The position numbers were made by a program, and so were the translations under genes. From IMG/VR virus record IMGVR_UViG_3300020440_000050, positions 1 through 30,988 of that record: a stretch of 30,988 nucleotides of DNA; one strand, written 5' to 3'. This DNA comes from a virus (Duplodnaviria > Caudoviricetes). Below are positions 3,647-30,753 of the stretch, in pieces. Under the pieces are notes generated by a model. It saw only the letters and a program-made list of their open reading frames with translations, was not told the DNA's origin and made no database searches. The stretch's first letter is position 1. Every line of letters starts with the position of its first letter.

Positions 3647-6600
3647 CTATTCTGTTGTAGCGGCGTTAGCCAAACCATTTAATATTTGTCTTGCTCCATA
3701 TAACGAAGAGAAAGGTAGAACACGTAAAAGACTACGCAACTCGTTCTCTGTTAGTTCCCCTTCACCTATGGCATCAAATATATCTGAAACACCTTTAACT
3801 GCACCAATACCTAATGACACACCAGCAGGTGTAAGAGCATTGGTATTACCATCCATTGCACCTGTTGACAGTTGGTAGATATAACCAAACAAGGATGCAG
3901 CACCTATTTGACTTAATGCACCTTGAGCAAATCTATCCATCTGGAAATTACGCTGTAGGTATTCCTGTTGGTCACTACGTCCCATAGAATTAAGATAAGT
4001 TCTGCTCATGTACATCATACTACCCATCAAAGCAGAAAACGCCATGATACGTGCTACTTGTTGAGCGTCACCATTAACAAACCTAACGCCTAGACGCATA
4101 GCTTGTTGTTCCATAGAAGCCATAGGGAAAGATAAAAACTGAAAGAATGTTTTACCTATCTCACTACGCAGTAATCCATTTACTGAGCCATTGTTCATCT
4201 CTTGCACAAGTTGTGTAGCTTCACGTCTGGCAGACATGCTAAACACATTCTTAGCGTCTTGTAGTTCCCACTTGTCAATATTCAACGCATCTAACGCACC
4301 GTCTTTATTGTATGTCGCATGCTTTCTAATCATCTTTCCAATGTCAGATGCTACTGCATTTGATATGCCTAACTGCTCACGTTTAATAGGGGAGAATGGA
4401 ACTTTACCACGTCTTACTGCGTCTGACCATTCTGTAGCATAGTTAAGTGTAGTACCCCTACGAAGAATGTCAGTTACACCCTGAAGACCAGAAGCTACTG
4501 ACATAAAAATGCGTCCACGTCCAAGTAGAACATCCATCTCAGTAATTTCACCAGCGATTTCCATGCCACTAGCTACGTCACCCTCTAGTCTGCTTCTCAT
4601 GGTTGTAACTTTAGATACCATGCCATCACTACCCACACCAGTGACTGCCATCATCTCTCGCATTAGCTTATTATCTAACTCACCGTTCTGTGCTTTACGT
4701 ACTAAGTTTCTGAATTGAGGTACAGTTTTCATTAATGTGGTTAACGAATATTCAAACAGCACATTGGATGTTTCCATCAATGCCGCCATGCCTGACATAC
4801 CCATACTAGTGAAGAAAGAAACCTCTCTCACTCTACGTGTAATAGTCAAAGCATCGTCTGACAAGCCTGATTTGTATGCTAGTTGACCTGTTACAGAATC
4901 ATACATATACTGTAATGCGTCTATTTCTTTTTGTCTGGTTGAATCTGCTTGGTCTTTTACTTTACCTAGCAGAGTGTCAAAGCTAGACCCTAACTTGTTT
5001 GTATTGATACCATTACGAGCAAGAGCCGTAGCACCTGCTAGTTGAAATACATAACTGTCGTACAGGTTTTCCATGTTTTCTTCCAACAAGTCCGTAAACT
5101 TTAGTTGGAAAGGTTTACCGTCTGCACCTGTTACAGTAATCTCTGTACCTTCATCTAGTATCATACGTGGTTTGGCTCGTTTGTGTCCCTTTACTTCAGC
5201 AGAACGAGTAAGAGCATCAATCATTACTTCGATGTCAGCATCATCAAAACCTTCGTTCTTCATAAGCATTGTAAAGTCTTCTACATCAAAGTCACCATTA
5301 CGTAACTTAGCTGATGCTCCACCATACTTAGGGTCTACTACGTTCTTAATGTAACCACGTGACATAGAAGCAATGAAAGCTTTTACTTGCTTATTAGTCA
5401 CAGGCTTACCACGTTTCTTAGCTAACATCTTAGCTACATCACGCTCAATTTCTGGCTGACCTCTGCGTATAGCAGCTTCAGCTAGTTCACCCCAAGCCTT
5501 GTTGATAGTACCGTCAGCTTCATCTGGTAGTGTTTCTTTACGTAGTCTAGCTATGTTTCCCTTGTTAAACATTCTAGGAACATAGTTGTCAATGCGAGAT
5601 ATAACACCAGATGTAAAGCCAGCAGCGTCAGCACCTATAGCTTCTTTAGCTATGTTGTTTATCTCACGCTTGTAAATGTCTGCTGCTTCTCTAATTGTTT
5701 TATCAGCGTTAGGGTTTGGCATACGTATCTGTCTAGAGACTAGTACACTAAAATCTGAACGTGTAATATTAGGATTACGTCTGATAAAGTCATCCCTAAG
5801 AGTACGAATAGGTACAGCTACTTTAGCACGATATGACATAACCATAGTGTCACGTTGCTCTAACGCACCAAAGTTTACAGGTATGGTATTACCAGTAGCA
5901 GGGTCAACTCTGTTACCAGTACTATTTAATCCAAGACCATCTGCTAACCAACGTACTGTACCATCATCTGAATCTTTAGCACGTACAAAGGAAGACAACA
6001 CACCTCTTAATTTAGGTGCTACGCCTCTTTGCTTTGGTATTGCAGCAATCTCTTCTTCTGTCATTTCTGACAGTTCTTTTCTTTTTATACCAGCACTAGC
6101 GTCAGGTACAACAGCTTCACCTGTTTTGAAGTCGTCACCATCTAAGGCCATCTTACGAAACTGTTGAGCTAGTATCTCATCATCGTTATCTTGTAGTAAT
6201 CTTTGCTGTGCGTCTGTGAGTACCTTACCGTCTGCTTGGTCTCTGAGTGCCATCTGCACGTTAGCACGTTTGGTCATGACTTGTCCAAGTCTAGTAAAAC
6301 CTAGATTGAAGCCAGCACCTAATGCACCAGCCAGCATGATGTCACCACCTGTGATGTCATACTTAACTTGTGACCTAAGTAGTTCTAGACCAGCTAACTC
6401 TGTGCCACCAATACCAGCAGCAGCCATAAGATACTTTTTATTATTCTTAAACTTGCTAAACATGCTAAAAGTTTTAGCACCCAAAGCTGTAACAGGAGCA
6501 GCAGCAGGGGCTACAGCAGCCGTAGCAGCAGCAGTTGTAAGCATAAGTGCTGCATCATCTGGTGCAAACACATCTGCTGTAACTGTAGCTGCCAAACCTT

Positions 6601-19019: not shown

Positions 19020-19042
19020 TTCGCTAATGTTGTAACTTTAGA
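19020..19042 (-). promoter_or_regulatory. Putative phage RNAP late promoter (phi6.5-like)
   Basis: Minus strand TCTAAAGTTACAACATTAGCGAA with the 14-bp core identical to the other copies. Overlaps the RNR stop at the start of the structural module. Confidence 0.8.
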
Positions 19043-20915
19043 TTTCACATACACCTGCTGTACAGGCTAATTCCTGAGAAGATGTAGTGTTATCAGCTAG
19101 TTCTGTGTACTCAGAGAAGTCTACATCTGGTACTTGTTCCTTTAATTCAAGGTAAGTATCCTCATCAATCTCTTCGTATGGTGCTTGAGCATAGCTATGG
19201 TTGTCGTCCTCACGTGGCAGGAATGATACACCACAGATTTCATCCCAATGTTTGTACACCCATGCACCTACCTCTGCCCATTCTTCCTCACCCACATAGA
19301 TAGTGACTGATGGATTGTGGTCAGTCCAATGCTTACGATACTTGAGCCACAGTTCTAGATGCTGAATAGCAGACACATCATGCCGTGTCAAACTATTCTC
19401 AGCAGATTTCATTGGGAAACTGAATACCAAGTTCTGCGGATTATACACATCTGCTTCACAAGGCACACCCTTGTCCTGCATCCACGTTGCCAAAGGGTCT
19501 TTAACATCTGCACGTACACGTCTGATATAATATTTTGCATAGCGAGGATGGATACCACTTCCACTGTTTACAAGCTGCGACACAGTACCGCTAGGCTTGA
19601 CTGTCGTAATAGCTTTTGATTCAGGGATGCCTAGCTTTGCTGCCCACTCTTTGTTTGTTTCACGTGCAACTTCACGGAATTGTTGCAGTGTGCCAGCCAG
19701 AATGTTTGATTCGTACTCACCCTGTCCTGACATAATCTTATGGTCAAAGATACCTGTGAGTGATACACCTAGCAGTCGCTCTTCTTCTGAGTTCTTCTTC
19801 CACTTAGGTGACAGATATTTAAAGTCTACTAGTGCTGACTGGATTGTACCAATGATGGTAGCAATCTCTATCTTTTTCCTAATTTCATCAGTGCCATCAG
19901 TCTCACGAATGATTACCTCTGACAGATTACAGAACTGTTTACTGCGTAGGCTAATCTCACCACATGGATTAGTACCAAAGTCATCACGTGGCTCACGTCC
20001 AATAGCTACAGCCTTTGCTTTAGCTGCCTCACGGTTGAAAATACCACGTTCACCTGACTTAGATTCATAGATGGATGTCCACTCACGCAGGAAGCTACCC
20101 ATGTCAGGCTTCTCTGTAAAGCTGATAGAGTTGTTAGCATAGCTACGGTTCACTTGGTCATTCCACCAGTTGCCCATCTTAGCGTGACGCATACGGTCAT
20201 CACTCAGGTTAGACAAGCTAATCATAGCTGACCTACGCACACCACCTACAACTACAGCAGCAGCTACCTGACACATGAGGTCATGGCACTCAAGGCTATT
20301 CAGCTTGCGTCCTGCTGCCTTGGTGAATGTGTTGATGGCAAACTTAAACAAGTTCTCTAGTGGCTCTGCACCTGAGGCACGTCCACCAAATGTCTTGAGC
20401 CTAGCCCCAGCAGGACGTACTTTAGATACATCCCACTTAGGTATCTCACCAGCATACAGGCGAGAGATAATCTGACGTAGTGCCTTTGCCCATCCCTCTT
20501 TACTGTCTGCTACTACGATAACCTCATCAGTCTTGCTTAGTTCTGCTGGTACTTCGGGCAGCTTCTGGATGAACTGACGCTCAACACTGAATCCTACCCC
20601 TGTGCCACACATGAGTACAAGCAATGCCTCATCGAAAGCCTTGGGGTCATCGACAGCTAGGAAGCTACAGTTGTATGCAGCTACTTGGTTGCGGTCTAGT
20701 GCCTCACCTGCTGTCATAATGGTACGCATTGAGGGGACAACCTCAAGGTCATGGATAGCAACTTTAACATCCTGCCTCTGCTCAAGGGCAGGGAACTTGT
20801 CAGTCATGTAGTTCCACCAACGGTCTACAGTTTCTTCCCAAGTCTCACGCCTACCTTTATCTTCTAGCCACCGTGCGTATCGGCTGACGTGTATGTATGA
20901 TTGATAGCTATCCAT
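19038..20915 (-). CDS. nrdJ: Class II adenosylcobalamin-dependent ribonucleotide reductase, monomeric type (625 aa)
   Basis: SRYARW...RRETWEETV, YNCSF, LMCGTGVGFSVE, VVVGGVRRSA, TNPCGEI, TTVKPSGTVS, C-terminal ELACTAGVCEI. No beta-subunit gene nearby. Confidence 0.93.
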   Translation of the reverse strand: MDSYQSYIHVSRYARWLEDKGRRETWEETVDRWWNYMTDKFPALEQRQDVKVAIHDLEVVPSMRTIMTAGEALDRNQVAAYNCSFLAVDDPKAFDEALLVLMCGTGVGFSVERQFIQKLPEVPAELSKTDEVIVVADSKEGWAKALRQIISRLYAGEIPKWDVSKVRPAGARLKTFGGRASGAEPLENLFKFAINTFTKAAGRKLNSLECHDLMCQVAAAVVVGGVRRSAMISLSNLSDDRMRHAKMGNWWNDQVNRSYANNSISFTEKPDMGSFLREWTSIYESKSGERGIFNREAAKAKAVAIGREPRDDFGTNPCGEISLRSKQFCNLSEVIIRETDGTDEIRKKIEIATIIGTIQSALVDFKYLSPKWKKNSEEERLLGVSLTGIFDHKIMSGQGEYESNILAGTLQQFREVARETNKEWAAKLGIPESKAITTVKPSGTVSQLVNSGSGIHPRYAKYYIRRVRADVKDPLATWMQDKGVPCEADVYNPQNLVFSFPMKSAENSLTRHDVSAIQHLELWLKYRKHWTDHNPSVTIYVGEEEWAEVGAWVYKHWDEICGVSFLPREDDNHSYAQAPYEEIDEDTYLELKEQVPDVDFSEYTELADNTTSSQELACTAGVCEI

Positions 20916-22241: not shown

Positions 22242-22404
22242 CGTTTATATCCTCTTCTTTCTCAGCCTTGCGAAGTATGCGTAGTCCTGTTTGTACCTGT
22301 ATGTAATCTAGGTAAGCTTCCACAATCCACTTAACACTTAGACATATGCTTACACTCAGGAACGAGCAGGTTAGTATTAGCTTCCATACAAAATCAAAGT
22401 CCAT
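22222..22404 (-). CDS. Small putative membrane protein (60 aa)
   Basis: Hydrophobic N-terminal segment, SD AAGGAG, overlaps both neighbours. Confidence 0.65.
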   Translation of the reverse strand: MDFDFVWKLILTCSFLSVSICLSVKWIVEAYLDYIQVQTGLRILRKAEKEEDINDDPTAY

Positions 22405-23005
22405 GTTGGATGCACTCCTTTGCCTGTCCTACTGACATCTTAAACCACTCACCTCTACGTTCTGCTACCTTTGATGCAGCCTTGTGTGCAGCAGATTCAG
22501 CCTTGCGTCTGTCTTTAGTAGACACAGAGTACCTTACCTTGTAGTCACGGAAAGGACTGCTGGTTTGATAGCCGTTACACCTATCCTCTGCATCAACAGC
22601 CATCCCAATCTTCACCCACTCAGGCCACGCTGAGTTAGTAATAATGTAGACCTGACCCTCAGTACTACGCTCATAGTTTTGAAGACCAGAGAAAGCAGCT
22701 TCATCGAATGACTTGTATCGTCCTGCTTTCCATAAGGGGTGTGACTTAGGGATATGTTTACCATTAACATACATCCTATCAGCATCACGCTTATGCCAAC
22801 AAGACTTACAGACGTACTTAGCCTGTGCCTGTCTGGCCTCTGTCCAGTTGTCTCCTAGTACAAGCCCACTACCACAGTCGATACACTCCTTAGTGAGTGT
22901 CTGCCCAGTTGCTTCCGTACTTGTACTCACTGTCGAGTTGACATCTGAATCTGAAGTGCTGTTCGACATCTCGCATACACTGTTGAATAAGTCTGCCTGT
23001 TGCAT
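22394..23005 (-). CDS. T5orf172/GIY-YIG-like nuclease with N-terminal Cys4 zinc motif (start uncertain)
   Basis: CIDC...CKSC, then GQVYIITN...VKIGMA...RCNGYQTSSP...AESAAH...GEWF. Confidence 0.75.
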   Translation of the reverse strand: MQQADLFNSVCEMSNSTSDSDVNSTVSTSTEATGQTLTKECIDCGSGLVLGDNWTEARQAQAKYVCKSCWHKRDADRMYVNGKHIPKSHPLWKAGRYKSFDEAAFSGLQNYERSTEGQVYIITNSAWPEWVKIGMAVDAEDRCNGYQTSSPFRDYKVRYSVSTKDRRKAESAAHKAASKVAERRGEWFKMSVGQAKECIQHGL

Positions 23006-24614: not shown

Positions 24615-26231
24615 CTAAAATTCTATGTCGTCCTCTTCGTCAGAGAAGTATGTCTCAGTCATACGTCCTGTATCTGACAGATATTCTAGTGAACAACATA
24701 ATCCAGTTTCGCCTGACCATCTGTTCTTCAACACCCTGACCTGACTAATGTGTGGGTTATCCTTGTCTTGCTGGTTCCTCTCTAATCCTATCACGATGTC
24801 ACTAAGCTGACCAATAGCAGCACTACCACGTAGTTGTGACATGCTAGTCTGTGCGCCATCCTCATGTCCTCTGTCACCAGACGGACGCTTGAGGTGAGAG
24901 ATGAGTATCATACCACAGTTCAACTCTTCAACCAAAGCACGAAGCTTGGTCATAGTGTTGTCAATAATTCTACGCTCATCCCCACCTTCCATACCAGATA
25001 CAACGATACTAATATGGTCAAGGATAATATACTCGCAGCCGCAACCACGTACAAGATAGCGTATCTTGGATAAAAGATTATCGCTATCAGTGCTGCCCCA
25101 ATGGTCATACAGGTAAACCCTGCCAGAACCAACTGTAGCATCAAAAGCATTACGCATCTCCTCTTCAGGTAAGTCATTACTGTGTAGGTGTAAGGGCTGG
25201 TTGAGTTCAATAGACATCAGACCTAGAGCAGTACGCTTGATGTTCTCCTCTAGTGCTATGTATCCAATAGTCTCCCCATGTTTGATAAAGTTATAGGCAA
25301 ACTCCCTAGCCAACTGTGACTTACCAATGCCTGACCCTGCTGTAAGCGTGACAATCTCACCCTTACGACAACCACCAGTCTTCTCCTGTAGTCCAGCATA
25401 GGGGTAGCCTACTGATGCTCTGTCGTCATTGTGTATTACAATGTCCCATACATCTGTACCTGCTACAATACCATCTGGTCTAAAGGTCTTGGCTTCCCAC
25501 ATACAGTTAAGCAGTTCCTTCACACGTCCAGCTACCAACATCTCGTTGGCATCCTTCAGTGGTAGGGTAGCTATCCTACACTTGTTGGGTGGCAGTACAG
25601 ACGCACACTCTTTGGCTGCTCGTTGTCCTGCCTCATCGTTGTCGAACATAAGCACAACGTACTCGTAGTTAGACAACCATTCGATGGCCTTGCCTATTGC
25701 TTTCTTGGCTGACGTACAGCCAGAGGGCAGTGAAACCACAGGCCACTTGTGGTCTAGTGCTTGGCTAAGAGAGAGGGCATCTAGTTCCCCCTCTGTGATA
25801 GTAACAAACTTACCACTATCACGCCATAAGTGTTCGCCATACAGTGCCACATCCTTGATGTTGCCAATGACAGAGAAGTCTTTGTTAACAAAGCGTACCT
25901 TCTGTGCCTTCAGTTCACCATCACGGCTGCGATAGTTGGCTACCTGTACTGCCTGACCCTTGTAGGTTGAGACACCATAGCCCCAAACCTTACAGGTCTT
26001 CTCAGTAATACCACGCTTGGCTAGTTCTTTGAACTGTAAGTCTAAGAACATTGTGTCTGCTGTCTCAAACATAGCTACTGCCTCATCCGTTTTATCAGCA
26101 GGGGTCAGTGTCTCACAAGCGAAGCAGAAGTGATTACCATCTGCATACAAAGCATTGGCATCACTACTACCACAGTGAGGACAAGGCTCATGCCTAATGA
26201 ACTCACTTTCCGACTGCATTAACAATCTCAT
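24615..26231 (-). CDS. gp4: Primase-helicase (alternative start 26219)
   Basis: CPHC...CFAC zinc ribbon, TOPRIM TEGELDALS and FDND, Walker A AGSGIGKS, ILDHISI, LRGS, LKNR. Confidence 0.97.
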   Translation of the reverse strand: MRLLMQSESEFIRHEPCPHCGSSDANALYADGNHFCFACETLTPADKTDEAVAMFETADTMFLDLQFKELAKRGITEKTCKVWGYGVSTYKGQAVQVANYRSRDGELKAQKVRFVNKDFSVIGNIKDVALYGEHLWRDSGKFVTITEGELDALSLSQALDHKWPVVSLPSGCTSAKKAIGKAIEWLSNYEYVVLMFDNDEAGQRAAKECASVLPPNKCRIATLPLKDANEMLVAGRVKELLNCMWEAKTFRPDGIVAGTDVWDIVIHNDDRASVGYPYAGLQEKTGGCRKGEIVTLTAGSGIGKSQLAREFAYNFIKHGETIGYIALEENIKRTALGLMSIELNQPLHLHSNDLPEEEMRNAFDATVGSGRVYLYDHWGSTDSDNLLSKIRYLVRGCGCEYIILDHISIVVSGMEGGDERRIIDNTMTKLRALVEELNCGMILISHLKRPSGDRGHEDGAQTSMSQLRGSAAIGQLSDIVIGLERNQQDKDNPHISQVRVLKNRWSGETGLCCSLEYLSDTGRMTETYFSDEEDDIEF

Positions 26232-26466
26232 TAATGATGTACTGTAAGCCTTGGACTATATCATTAACTTCATCAGCATCATAGACATCATCCCTTATAT
26301 CTTCAAGGATATTCTCTGCCATCTGTTCCCATGTCACATCATCTGAGAATAGTTCGTCATCAATGTAGATACTGGTAGACAACCCTGTTGAGTATAGGTT
26401 CACCATCACATCAACCTCTGACGTAATCTCAGTTGTTAGTTCATCTTTTGTTTCAATCAAACTCAT
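26203..26466 (-). CDS. Highly acidic hypothetical protein (87 aa)
   Basis: ATGA overlap with the endonuclease stop, SD GAGGAG. By hand count 22 Asp/Glu versus 3 Lys/Arg. Confidence 0.8.
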   Translation of the reverse strand: MSLIETKDELTTEITSEVDVMVNLYSTGLSTSIYIDDELFSDDVTWEQMAENILEDIRDDVYDADEVNDIVQGLQYIINEIVNAVGK

Positions 26467-26828
26467 AGTAACCACTCCTCAGGTACTGTTCCTTCTGCCC
26501 ACATAAAACCATTACGGTCTGCCCATTCTTTACAGGTCATCTTGCTTCCATCCTTTCGCTTCTTGGCACCCTGTACTGTAGCACTAGCGTTCTGGAATAC
26601 AAACCTGATGTCCAACTCTGGATGCTGTGCCTTGACAGCCTTCATCTTTCGTTGGGCATCCTGTCTGAAGTATCCCTTTAGTTCTACAATCATTGTGCCT
26701 ACTGCTAAGTCAGGGATGTAGTGACGTTCCACATAGTAGGCCAGCTTCTCTGGCTCATACTTATATGCAACGCCACGTTCATCAAGGTCACTGATGACCC
26801 TCGCCTCAAAAGTCCCCTTCGTTGGCAT
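26463..26828 (-). CDS. gp3: Endonuclease I (Holliday junction resolvase) (121 aa)
   Basis: FEARV...YEPEKL.Y...YIPDL...VELKGYF...HPELDIRFVFQ...WA..NGF. Confidence 0.95.
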   Translation of the reverse strand: MPTKGTFEARVISDLDERGVAYKYEPEKLAYYVERHYIPDLAVGTMIVELKGYFRQDAQRKMKAVKAQHPELDIRFVFQNASATVQGAKKRKDGSKMTCKEWADRNGFMWAEGTVPEEWLL

Positions 26829-27457: not shown

Positions 27458-27480
27458 CTTGGCTAGGTTGTAACTTTAGA
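27458..27480 (-). promoter_or_regulatory. Putative phage RNAP middle promoter
   Basis: Minus strand TCTAAAGTTACAACCTAGCCAAG, intergenic, 2 nt after the RNAP stop and upstream of ssb. Confidence 0.85.
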
Positions 27481-27482
27481 AA

Positions 27483-29132
27483 TCACGCAAAGAAATACTC
27501 CGATTGTAGTATCTCACGCAAATTTAATTCACCCCTAGCTGGTGGCACTGGTACATCTTCAGTACCTAGTACCTTGATAGCATGTTGTCTCAACTCTGTC
27601 AACACATCATGCTGCTCATACATATTAACAAACTCCTCACGTAATACCTCAGACAACAGTGGCATCATACTACTGTGTGTACCGTAGCTGTCGTGTACCA
27701 TAGCAAAGTCTTGGATGCCTAGCTTGCTTGCCTTGTTGATAGTCTTGGTCATAGCTGACGCATCCAGACTGTGGATAAAGTTAGGGCTGCTGCCCAACCC
27801 TGTCCTCTGCCTGTTCACAGAGTTTGGTTTGTCTTTGGGAAAGGACAACGACACGATGTCCCCATTGATATGTGTCTTGATTCTTTTCTGCTGCACCTCA
27901 CTGTATTGTTGTAACACTAACCATCCTGTAGGTGTGACCCACTCCATGTGCCTGTTCATCTGAGCATACACATCAGCCACATCCTTGATGTAGTCCATCA
28001 CCTTACGTGCTGACACAATCACCTCACTGATTGAATCCCACACGTGACCAGCTAGGTAGCTGGATGCCTCAAACAAATCATCACCGAATGGGTTAGGCTC
28101 ACCATCATCTATCTTGTCGTGCATAGCTTCCTCAATGTAGCCACGACATGCGTGACGTGTACCTGAGTAGGGGACAATCATCACTGGACGCTTGGCAAGC
28201 TTCCTGTCTATGCCAAAGGCCAAGCACTTACGTGCTAGTTCTGTGTCGTCCTGCTGCACACGTGCGATAGTCTTGTCTGCCACCTGTGTGTAGATGTCTT
28301 GAGGTATGCCTGATGGTACTAGGTTGGTAGCAATGCCACCCTGCCTGTCCCTCAGTATAGCAGAGAGGTGCTGTAGCCCATTGCAGCTACCATCTGCTGA
28401 CACAGGTAGGCGTGTCTCGTACCCCCAGCTATGCTTCATCAGGCCTGACATCTCGTAGCACCACGCCAAGAACTGGAATGGTTTGTCTGCCTCAAGCCAG
28501 ACCAAGCACTCGTATGGGTTGGACACAATGCGGTGCGCCCACATCTCTGCGTACTCCCATGCCCATGTCTCACGCTGGTCTAGTGTAACCTTGTCGTTAC
28601 CATACAGGTTAGCACCATGAATACACAACCACCGTGCGTCATCCCAATTGTTGATAGCCATTGGGTAGCCAAACTCAAGCAATGCCTTGCTCCAATCGGC
28701 AGACTGAGGTGAGAGGAACGTGCTGCTTGCATACTTGCGAGAACGAAAGTCGTTCTGCCATACGTAATAGAACCTGTCGTACCCAGCAAACTGTTCTGCT
28801 ATCTGTAGTGTACGCTCTACTTGTATGCGCTTGCTCACGCTGCGATTGTTGAGAGAGTAGATGTGATTACGCTTGCGTGACCATGCACGAAACTCATCCC
28901 TCTCATCCTCAGTCAACTGCTTGGGGTCACGATCAAAGGGATACTCAGGTAGTGGTACATCCTCTTTGGCTGGTAGCTTACCCCATTCATGTCCGTTGTC
29001 CCATATGGTACGCATCACCTCAAGCAATGGCTTGTTGATACGCCACTCTGTCCGTTGCAGTGTGTTAAGACAGGCATACTCTTGGATCAAGTCTTCCTGT
29101 CTTAGTCTGCGTAGGTGTGTCTTCAAACTCAT
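27483..29132 (-). CDS. gp1: T7-like RNA polymerase, C-terminal catalytic part (549 aa)
   Basis: WRINK, DFRSR (DxxGR-like), motif A DGSCNGLQH, motif B RKLAKRPVMIVPYS, PNFIHSLDA, motif C VHDSY, terminal YFFA. SD GAGG 5 nt before the ATG. Confidence 0.95.
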   Translation of the reverse strand: MSLKTHLRRLRQEDLIQEYACLNTLQRTEWRINKPLLEVMRTIWDNGHEWGKLPAKEDVPLPEYPFDRDPKQLTEDERDEFRAWSRKRNHIYSLNNRSVSKRIQVERTLQIAEQFAGYDRFYYVWQNDFRSRKYASSTFLSPQSADWSKALLEFGYPMAINNWDDARWLCIHGANLYGNDKVTLDQRETWAWEYAEMWAHRIVSNPYECLVWLEADKPFQFLAWCYEMSGLMKHSWGYETRLPVSADGSCNGLQHLSAILRDRQGGIATNLVPSGIPQDIYTQVADKTIARVQQDDTELARKCLAFGIDRKLAKRPVMIVPYSGTRHACRGYIEEAMHDKIDDGEPNPFGDDLFEASSYLAGHVWDSISEVIVSARKVMDYIKDVADVYAQMNRHMEWVTPTGWLVLQQYSEVQQKRIKTHINGDIVSLSFPKDKPNSVNRQRTGLGSSPNFIHSLDASAMTKTINKASKLGIQDFAMVHDSYGTHSSMMPLLSEVLREEFVNMYEQHDVLTELRQHAIKVLGTEDVPVPPARGELNLREILQSEYFFA

Positions 29133-29926
29133 TTGCGCCTCACTATAGGTAATTCGTCTATGTCGTGACCATGAAACCCACCACCCTGTACATCTGTCCA
29201 GTCCTTGGGTGGTACTATGCAGGGCAAGTATCGTGGCCTTGATACTTCCATGTATTCGTTGAACGCTTTGATAAACTCAAGCGTACCATCAGTAGGTTTG
29301 ACATAGGTAGCCCTACGTCTACGCTCAGTCTGCTGTGTGTCCAGCTTTACAATGCCTGTGTGCTGGATGATTATGTCAACCATCTTAAAGCCTACATGCA
29401 CACGCTCTGACTTCAGCCATGCTGATTCTTCATACCCATCCTTGTTCATCTTGTGCGTCAGGCCGTAGCGTCTAGCACCATAGGCTTTCTTCATAGCCTC
29501 TTTGATTGTGTTCTTTGCTACGCTACCCTCTGCGTGTACCCATCTGTCTAGTCTATCCTGCATCTCAATGTTAGTACCAATGGTACGTGCCACATGCAGC
29601 AGTGTGTTCTTCCTGCTGATGCTGTCAACCAACGACACCACTGAGAGGTAGGCTACCTGCTCTGCATCCATATCCTTGACACGCTTCCATGCTATGTCTC
29701 GTGATGGATTGCTAGGGTTGGCTAGGTACTGTTCAATACCCTGTGCTACTTGCCCCACAACTGTACCCACAATGGCTCTACCATGTGGCAGGTGTGATTC
29801 CCTACCCTTTTCAATGGCCTTGTCTCTGGCCTTCCTGAAGCGATTGACACCACCTGTCAGCATGTCTGCCTCAAGTTCAAGCTGATGCTCAAATAGGTCT
29901 TGGTTAGTTTCTAAAGTTACAACCAT
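29129..29926 (-). CDS. gp1: T7-like RNA polymerase, N-terminal domain part (265 aa)
   Basis: QLELE...GVNRF, IGTNIEMQ.R, W...ERVHVG, P.YLPCIVPPKDW...GGGF match the T7 RNAP N-terminal ~300 residues. SD AAGGGGGT. Confidence 0.92.
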   Translation of the reverse strand: MVVTLETNQDLFEHQLELEADMLTGGVNRFRKARDKAIEKGRESHLPHGRAIVGTVVGQVAQGIEQYLANPSNPSRDIAWKRVKDMDAEQVAYLSVVSLVDSISRKNTLLHVARTIGTNIEMQDRLDRWVHAEGSVAKNTIKEAMKKAYGARRYGLTHKMNKDGYEESAWLKSERVHVGFKMVDIIIQHTGIVKLDTQQTERRRRATYVKPTDGTLEFIKAFNEYMEVSRPRYLPCIVPPKDWTDVQGGGFHGHDIDELPIVRRK

Positions 29927-29932: not shown

Positions 29933-29951
29933 ACCCCCTTTTACTATATAC

Positions 29952-30553: not shown

Positions 30554-30753
30554 TAGAATAGTGGTGTAAATTCTACACCATCCTCGTGCTGCTGCTTCAG
30601 TGTGCGTAGCTGCTGTCGCATAGCTGTTACATCTTCACCATCCCACTCTGCATCTTGTATCTTGATGGATAGTGCTGTCATTTTTTTGACAGTAGGTTCT
30701 AGCCTGTCGTCAGAGTACACGTCCTTGCAGTATGAATCAATGTACATGCTCAT
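30553..30753 (-). CDS. Early hypothetical protein (66 aa)
   Basis: ATGA overlap at 30750-30753 with SD GGAGAGG. MSMYIDSY...VEFTPLF. Confidence 0.7.
   Translation of the reverse strand: MSMYIDSYCKDVYSDDRLEPTVKKMTALSIKIQDAEWDGEDVTAMRQQLRTLKQQHEDGVEFTPLF

Follow-up and report, generated by a model that had tools for sequence, protein, structure and literature searches.

A T7-type RNA polymerase encoded by two conserved genes in a lineage of marine phages

The only T7-type RNA polymerase (RNAP) of the phage studied here is encoded by two conserved genes, and the proteins probably join non-covalently into a working enzyme. Comparison across diverged relatives, which belong to a widespread and uncultured marine phage group, leads us to regard the split itself as real, ancient and natural. 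The window, by which we mean the whole stretch of 30,988 nucleotides analysed, is 31 kb of T7-like phage DNA with every gene on the minus strand; the virus record that holds it is estimated to be 76% complete.

The two polymerase genes and their surroundings

The features of the polymerase locus are as follows.

29129..29926, minus strand: RNAP N-terminal chain, 265 aa, up to T7 residue 300 (Pfam RPOL_N)
27483..29132, minus strand: RNAP catalytic chain, 549 aa, T7 residue 299 onward (Pfam RNA_pol)
29129..29132, minus strand: ATGA stop/start overlap, the same overlap as in 75 of 137 distinct junctions
29138..29143, minus strand: Shine-Dalgarno GTGAGG of the catalytic gene, within the Val-Arg codons of the first gene
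29934..29938, minus strand: Shine-Dalgarno GGGGG of the N-terminal gene

The N-terminal ORF ends with GGGFHGHDIDELPIVRRK and its stop, the catalytic ORF begins MSLKTHLRRL, the two overlap by ATGA at 29129-29132, and GAGG sits 5 bases 5' of the catalytic ATG, all as the first-pass annotation had described. The G-run 5' of the N-gene start was present in all 18 relatives listed. The two halves of the window stand in a -1 frame relation, and one added A would join the frames.

The genes had also been called translationally coupled, with ATGA coupling in use elsewhere in the genome. One further case was indeed found, at 30750-30753, but the usual overlap is 1 nt, the commonest class (7/35) among the 35 junctions of longer ORFs in the window. 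Coupling is plausible in the window; it is not the hallmark of the system, because relatives carry gaps or entire genes between the halves. The junction mRNA showed no structure above chance that would make the second gene dependent on coupling (z -0.93 to 1.74), and no RNA structure hiding the Shine-Dalgarno sequence.

After the RNAP genes, Pfam and PHROG matches gave the order SSB, endonuclease I, primase-helicase, PolA and exonuclease, and T7-like capsid and internal virion genes share one strand with the RNAP genes. Gene order and virion genes are those of the Autographiviridae/Autographivirales. In each of five near-complete relatives (40-45 kb) a single RNA_pol locus was present, and a second RNAP of the N4-like virion type was not found in any of these five genomes. 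Scans for sigma-70 promoters and terminators gave matches at or near chance level. RNAP genes occurred in RNA runs as contigs only, which is not evidence of transcription.

Some neighbouring genes deserve mention in their own right. Between endonuclease and primase, at 26203-26475, there is an acidic ORF of 90 aa for which PHROG gave no match. In related phages this place is taken by a lysozyme, the inhibitor of T7 RNAP; the window phage may limit its polymerase by some other route. The window further encodes a class II ribonucleotide reductase (19038-20915) and a T5orf172/MUG113 nuclease-like ORF (22394-23005) that overlaps the end of the DNA polymerase gene. An integrase-like gene precedes RNAP in deep clade members and in the nearest fused locus (L109 1052-2396; L144 108-545, Pfam-confirmed; L245 3422-4734); the window has small early genes there. 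The host predicted for relatives in published data is Rhodobacteraceae, with a low score.

Correspondence with T7 RNAP

When the chains are aligned with T7 RNAP, the first extends to R298/T299/H300 and the second picks up at T299/H300/S301, so that no residue is lost and two are duplicated. The break had been placed near T7 residue 300/301 without loss of sequence, and the alignment bears this out. By profile comparison the N chain matches T7 34-299 (E 8e-33), and on the PHROG RNA polymerase profile of 816 positions the two chains span 2-266 and 271-816. A fractured gene joined by a split intein was considered and rejected: the chain ends align to T7 with no extra residues, and Pfam recognises RPOL_N and RNA_pol only.

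The N chain contains the promoter-binding domain, the C-linker with P231 (T7 P266), which is invariant in 29 N halves, and an anchor segment at 231-264. Thumb, palm, fingers, specificity loop and the C-terminal FA lie on the catalytic chain. The earlier description of the promoter-binding and opening part as a separate chain needs correction: the N chain makes up only a portion of the promoter-binding apparatus, the specificity loop being on the catalytic chain. There, D247, R310, K314, Y322, H480 and D481 correspond to T7 D537, R627, K631, Y639, H811 and D812, D128 and R132 to D421 and R425, and F548 A549 to the terminal FA. The catalytic residues and the F of the terminal FA were invariant in all 24 diverse C halves compared; the last Ala varies. 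Motifs A, B and C had been described as intact. All catalytic residues are kept, but two Gly-to-Ser changes had been overlooked, DxxGR being DFRSR (catalytic chain residues 128-132) and the YG of motif B being YS (PYSG). Both look harmless. Motifs A/B/C, a DxxGR counterpart, an N-terminal promoter-binding domain and a C-terminal FA place the enzyme with the T7-like RNAP family; unlike the single polypeptide of that family, it is encoded by two genes in all of the 238 entries where both halves are present.

Conservation of the split

Viral contigs were scanned four times, two of the scans being taken as the best 80 of 190 and the best 80 of 104 matches, and gave 242 loci, some on contigs fetched repeatedly. 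With the window this makes 243 entries, of which 238 hold both halves and 5 lack the N half. The split lies at the T7 299-301 site in every one of the 238, which reduce to 137 distinct 500-nt junction regions. Their identity to the window ranges from 52 to 100% in the catalytic half and goes down to 40% in the N half. Five additional loci of a deeper branch were likewise all split. Searching for proteins like the N half yielded 103 matches, mostly of 255-272 aa with an LPIVRR-like tail, and the best 120 of 3111 matches to the catalytic profile all measured 506-554 aa, although up to 970 aa was permitted. Fused forms were absent among 8000 candidates scored by N-half alignment, a weak indicator, and some were later found by profile search. 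No cultured member of the clade was found among phage records, the best matches having at most 39% identity.

One contig, L144, carries a 230-aa ThyX gene (1729-2421) between the halves, which leaves a gap of 690 nt; the evidence for this insertion is one contig, because the L144 catalytic gene matched its own contig only. Single contigs also show an extra break inside the catalytic half (L092/L239, L177, L349, L351), including an extra stop in the C half in two contigs and three loci; for all of these an assembly error is the likely explanation.

Junction geometry and start signal

Across the 137 distinct junctions ten geometries were seen. The genes overlap by 4 nt in 75, by 1 nt in 28 and by 11 nt in 1; they abut in 1, and are separated by 1 nt in 15, 2 nt in 1, 3 nt in 12, 11 nt in 1, 14 nt in 2 and 690 nt in 1. 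The halves are in the same frame in 14, in a +1 relation in 16 and in a -1 relation in 107. A Shine-Dalgarno-like duplex, defined as one of -5 kcal/mol or better, lies 5' of the second start in 134/137 junctions; among 1749 internal in-frame ATGs the share is 18%. In 74 of the 75 ATGA junctions the Val-Arg codons read GTG AGG, with no change at either synonymous site. The second gene therefore has its own selected start.

These observations bear on the two alternatives that had been raised together with the two-gene reading. A programmed -1 frameshift or other recoding at CGC-AAA-TGA, yielding one chain of ~814 aa, would suit the -1 relation of the frames in the window and the colinearity of the proteins with T7. 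However, all three frame relations occur among the relatives; the codon before the first-gene stop varies (AAA, AGA, GCA, TCA or CAT), so no slippery site is conserved; in 19 of the 137 junctions the second frame is closed by a stop immediately 5' of the start; the Shine-Dalgarno sequence is placed at start spacing; and in L144 a whole gene stands between the halves. We consider such a frameshift very improbable.

That an uninterrupted gene only looks split, through an error of one base in sequencing or assembly, could be imagined since a single extra A would unite the frames, and since the junction is covered by contigs and not by raw reads. The region 29125-29140 had been singled out for read mapping; assembled contigs from 7 of 8 public runs span it with no indel, two of the seven runs possibly being the source of the window and two looking like one data set. 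More decisive are the 238 split entries with their 137 distinct junctions and ten geometries: taken as independent, diverged assemblies, they already refute this alternative, whose probability we put at practically nil. The varying frame relation, the thyX gene between the halves and the start signal at the second starts together exclude both an assembly error and a conserved frameshift. The proposed check of stop/start and Shine-Dalgarno sequence in diverged relatives thus came out in favour of two genes, a reading now upheld by a deep clade in which the frame geometry changes and insertion of a whole gene is tolerated.

Origin of the split and a second split group

In trees of the catalytic part a single branch sets the clade of the window (group A) apart, and the proteins that surround it are fused: P0229 and P0242, then L245, P0251 and P0267 (99/99 support). 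A second split group (group B) came to light in a scan of bacterial genomes, with ten Pelagibacteraceae loci; it also includes the cultured phages Gjalp, HTVC041P and HTVC025P and two uncultured records, each annotated with two genes, and the Eyrgjafa record shows two RNAP annotations. HTVC025P, HTVC041P, Gjalp, Eyrgjafa and uv-Fonsiphage-EPL are pelagiphages of HTVC019Pvirus group III with a two-part RNAP gene, and the split genes of group III are those of group B. Its break lies near T7 292, its second gene begins MHYNL/F, and in the trees it is sister to the fused P0247. A tree constrained to unite groups A and B is worse by 186 log-likelihood units (AU p = 4.8e-12; 26 rows, LG+G4, groups set by gene state after quick trees had been viewed), and on this test we reject a shared split ancestor. 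Group B represents a second, separate fission, about 8 residues earlier, in HTVC025P-type pelagiphages.

Within group A the history may be less simple. In the N-half tree P0229 and P0242, each a single sequence without genomic context, branch from an open fork among N halves that stand alone; three others of this kind fall outside the pair. This placement leaves a single fission unproven and makes re-fusion within or around group A possible. Scans that used P0235 and P0234, the deepest of the stand-alone N halves, gave no loci; those with the fused P0229 gave relatives of 28-44% identity only, and all seven viral loci of that scan were fused at the seam (ten metagenome loci were left out).

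Several other records were set apart. Breaks in the bacterial assemblies L266, L286 and L287 lie at other positions, resemble frameshift errors or decay and were not counted as splits. P0245, whose end presumably is a translated sequencing adapter, was also excluded from the count. HTVC011P (L325, KC465900), the lone 'fused' member of group III, has one base fewer than all eight aligned relatives at about 2920-2960; the gap directly follows the second gene's conserved ATG, so that the fusion is either a record error or a genuine re-fusion. HTVC025P carries two small genes of no known function, gp10 and gp11, between its RNAP halves (L328 1022-1422). T7-type RNAP ORFs of 1336 and 1430 codons between stops were seen in L322 (4300-8310) and L324 (4057-8349), single-cell genomes labelled as marine archaea.

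A predicted phage promoter

A general repeat search, otherwise mostly noise, brought out a 14-nt motif, TCTAAAGTTACAAC, with four copies in the window where 0.4 were expected (at most 2 mismatches); none of 100 shuffled controls attained four copies.

27467..27480, minus strand: predicted promoter core TCTAAAGTTACAAC, directly 3' of the catalytic gene, its function suggested by position
29910..29923, plus strand: antisense predicted promoter over the first N-gene codons, covarying with the downstream copy in relatives
19029..19042, minus strand: predicted promoter 5' of the late genes
4602..4615, minus strand: predicted promoter within an internal-virion gene, 5' of the tail genes

In each of the five near-complete relatives the motif occurs four times in sense and once in antisense orientation, and the spacing from the motif to the following G fits a T7-type binding element at -17 to -5. 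We infer that the motif, in the candidate form TCTAAAGTTACAACC(T/A), is the phage promoter. The antisense copy covaries with the copy after RNAP in shallow relatives and is missing in deep ones; being absent from the deeper split lineages, it is therefore later than the split. Together with an AT-rich tail (in the window to about 29995; compare L342 1554-1650), the antisense copy forms an inverted repeat with the copy following terL, about 80 nt long in G001 and about 40 nt in G002. This arrangement makes the two sites point outward, to the presumed genome ends; autoregulation, a replication origin or a packaging signal are candidate functions.

Assembly and function of the two chains

Both halves are under purifying selection: for six pairs dN/dS was 0.04-0.18 in the N half and 0.08-0.12 in the catalytic half, dS being near saturation in distant pairs. 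Complex prediction for the two chains scored 0.84, the best control 0.01; of 157 solved complexes 116 attained the mark applied, and of 215 mismatched pairs 2 did. The prediction runs share at least 63% of contacts, with a partner pLDDT of at least 78. Because structures of T7 RNAP are solved, this pass may reflect likeness only. The predicted interface comprises two patches, one of N chain 231-264 against catalytic chain 3-30 and 111-140, the other of N-chain helices against catalytic chain 416-431, the specificity loop.

A mechanism in line with these data can be proposed. Both genes would be translated from an early mRNA, and in the window the ATGA overlap may help hold the two chains near 1:1. 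The last 35 residues of the N chain (231-264, PCIVPPKDW...GGG...LPIVR) are predicted to dock on two elements of the catalytic chain, its first helix and its DxxSR strand, and the promoter-binding helices of the N chain to contact the specificity loop. In T7 RNAP the C-linker comprises residues 251-296, P266 is near the pivot of the N-terminal domain rotation and subdomain H joins the RNA channel in elongation (PMC3961267). As the break lies just past the C-linker, the hinge around T7 P266 would stay inside one chain, and the domain could rotate between initiation and elongation as it does in T7, with the N chain anchored non-covalently and presumably retained during elongation. Middle and late genes would be transcribed by this enzyme from TCTAAAGTTACAA promoters. 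Fission at a surface seam that tolerates a break, followed by fixation, is the likely origin of the split, and no benefit is needed for it: neutral fission and fixation explain the sequence data without an adaptive advantage. Pelagiphages of group B, which are viable since they have been cultured, encode a two-gene RNAP.

A different role for the split would be control. The N chain might bind only loosely and serve as a sigma-like factor for initiation, or its amount might be tuned separately, for example through the antisense promoter at the start of its gene. The persistence of the split over 52-100% identity and its origin at least two times could speak for such an adaptation, as could inserted genes able to uncouple the halves and the conserved antisense promoter-like site over the first N-gene codons. 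However, the specificity loop is carried by the C chain; at most junctions the genes overlap or almost touch, an arrangement that favours synthesis at 1:1; and the antisense site is missing in the deeper split lineages. We consider this adaptation unlikely. The same small likelihood attaches to its more specific form, an exchangeable, separately controlled promoter-opening subunit whose synthesis the polymerase throttles through the antisense phage promoter. If true, there would be a sigma-like division of labour within a family defined as single-subunit.

Finally, one half or the whole enzyme might be vestigial, the phage using the host polymerase or the catalytic chain alone. The Gly-to-Ser changes in both DxxGR and motif B could be read in this way. 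Purifying selection on both halves, the invariant catalytic residues and the promoter-like motif at T7-like positions in 5/5 genomes all argue against it, and we give the idea very little credence. The split has several implications. A textbook single-subunit enzyme has been cut naturally at least two times within about 8 residues, beside a seam found in a laboratory screen; in a functional two-chain enzyme the covalent link past the C-linker would be dispensable across long evolutionary times. Two-input gene switches could draw on the clade as a source of natural split polymerases and of a predicted promoter to go with them. Annotation that filters by length or coverage will miss or mislabel RNAP in part of a large group of marine phages.

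Comparison with known systems

Two-gene T7-type RNAPs are, as a kind, already in print, for group B since 2019 and for N4 in depth. RNAP genes were reported as fragmented into two parts in all HTVC019Pvirus group III genomes except HTVC011P, and Chen et al. 2019 regarded the interruption as not recent; the three sentences of that preprint that speak of 'fragmented' genes offer no subunit model or break position (bioRxiv 10.1101/672428). The five relatives of the window that were looked up include four listed in AG-7, a marine Autographiviridae group of 102 uncultured genomes, third-largest and without isolate (PMC12361551). The table of that survey scores RNAP as present, and the words split, fragment, truncat and interrupt are all absent from its main text (PMC12361551). 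The literature searched, with most subscription journals outside coverage, contained no description of an RNAP split at 299-301; nor did it report the window lineage, its break at the engineered seam or its origin separate from group B.

A close counterpart is the RNAP of the group III pelagiphages, which like the window phage are marine and T7-like, with a two-gene RNAP cut near the end of the C-linker and halves separable by genes. Their genes encode about 300-330 and 556-574 aa. The LVRTH-like strand is on the catalytic chain in group III, whereas it is on the N chain in the window clade, and the two enzymes share only about 37% identity. N4 RNAPII is a biochemically demonstrated heterodimer of gp15 (269 aa) and gp16 (404 aa); it has a truncated N-terminal domain, a cofactor gp2 and an accompanying virion RNAP (PMC4496689). 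Its break after DX2GR, given in the first-pass annotation, is confirmed, DX2GR being on the first chain (PMC4496689). The break in the window enzyme precedes that of N4 by about 120 residues; DxxSR belongs to the catalytic chain, and the N domain is almost complete.

With T7 RNAP (883 aa; PDB 1ARO, 1CEZ) the window enzyme shares domains, motifs and their order, as well as a promoter-like site directly 3' of the RNAP gene. It differs in its two chains, which total 814 aa, in a shorter AT-rich recognition loop region and in a phage without a lysozyme gene between endonuclease and primase. The tolerance of T7 RNAP to bisection near 301 had likewise been stated correctly: the enzyme cut at 301 or 302, one of five seams, is active (Segall-Shapiro et al. 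2014, PMC4299498). The natural break lies within about 2 residues of this engineered 301-302 seam. In contrast to the engineered bisection, the split of the window clade is natural, is fixed over a deep clade and has its own evolved start with a Shine-Dalgarno sequence.
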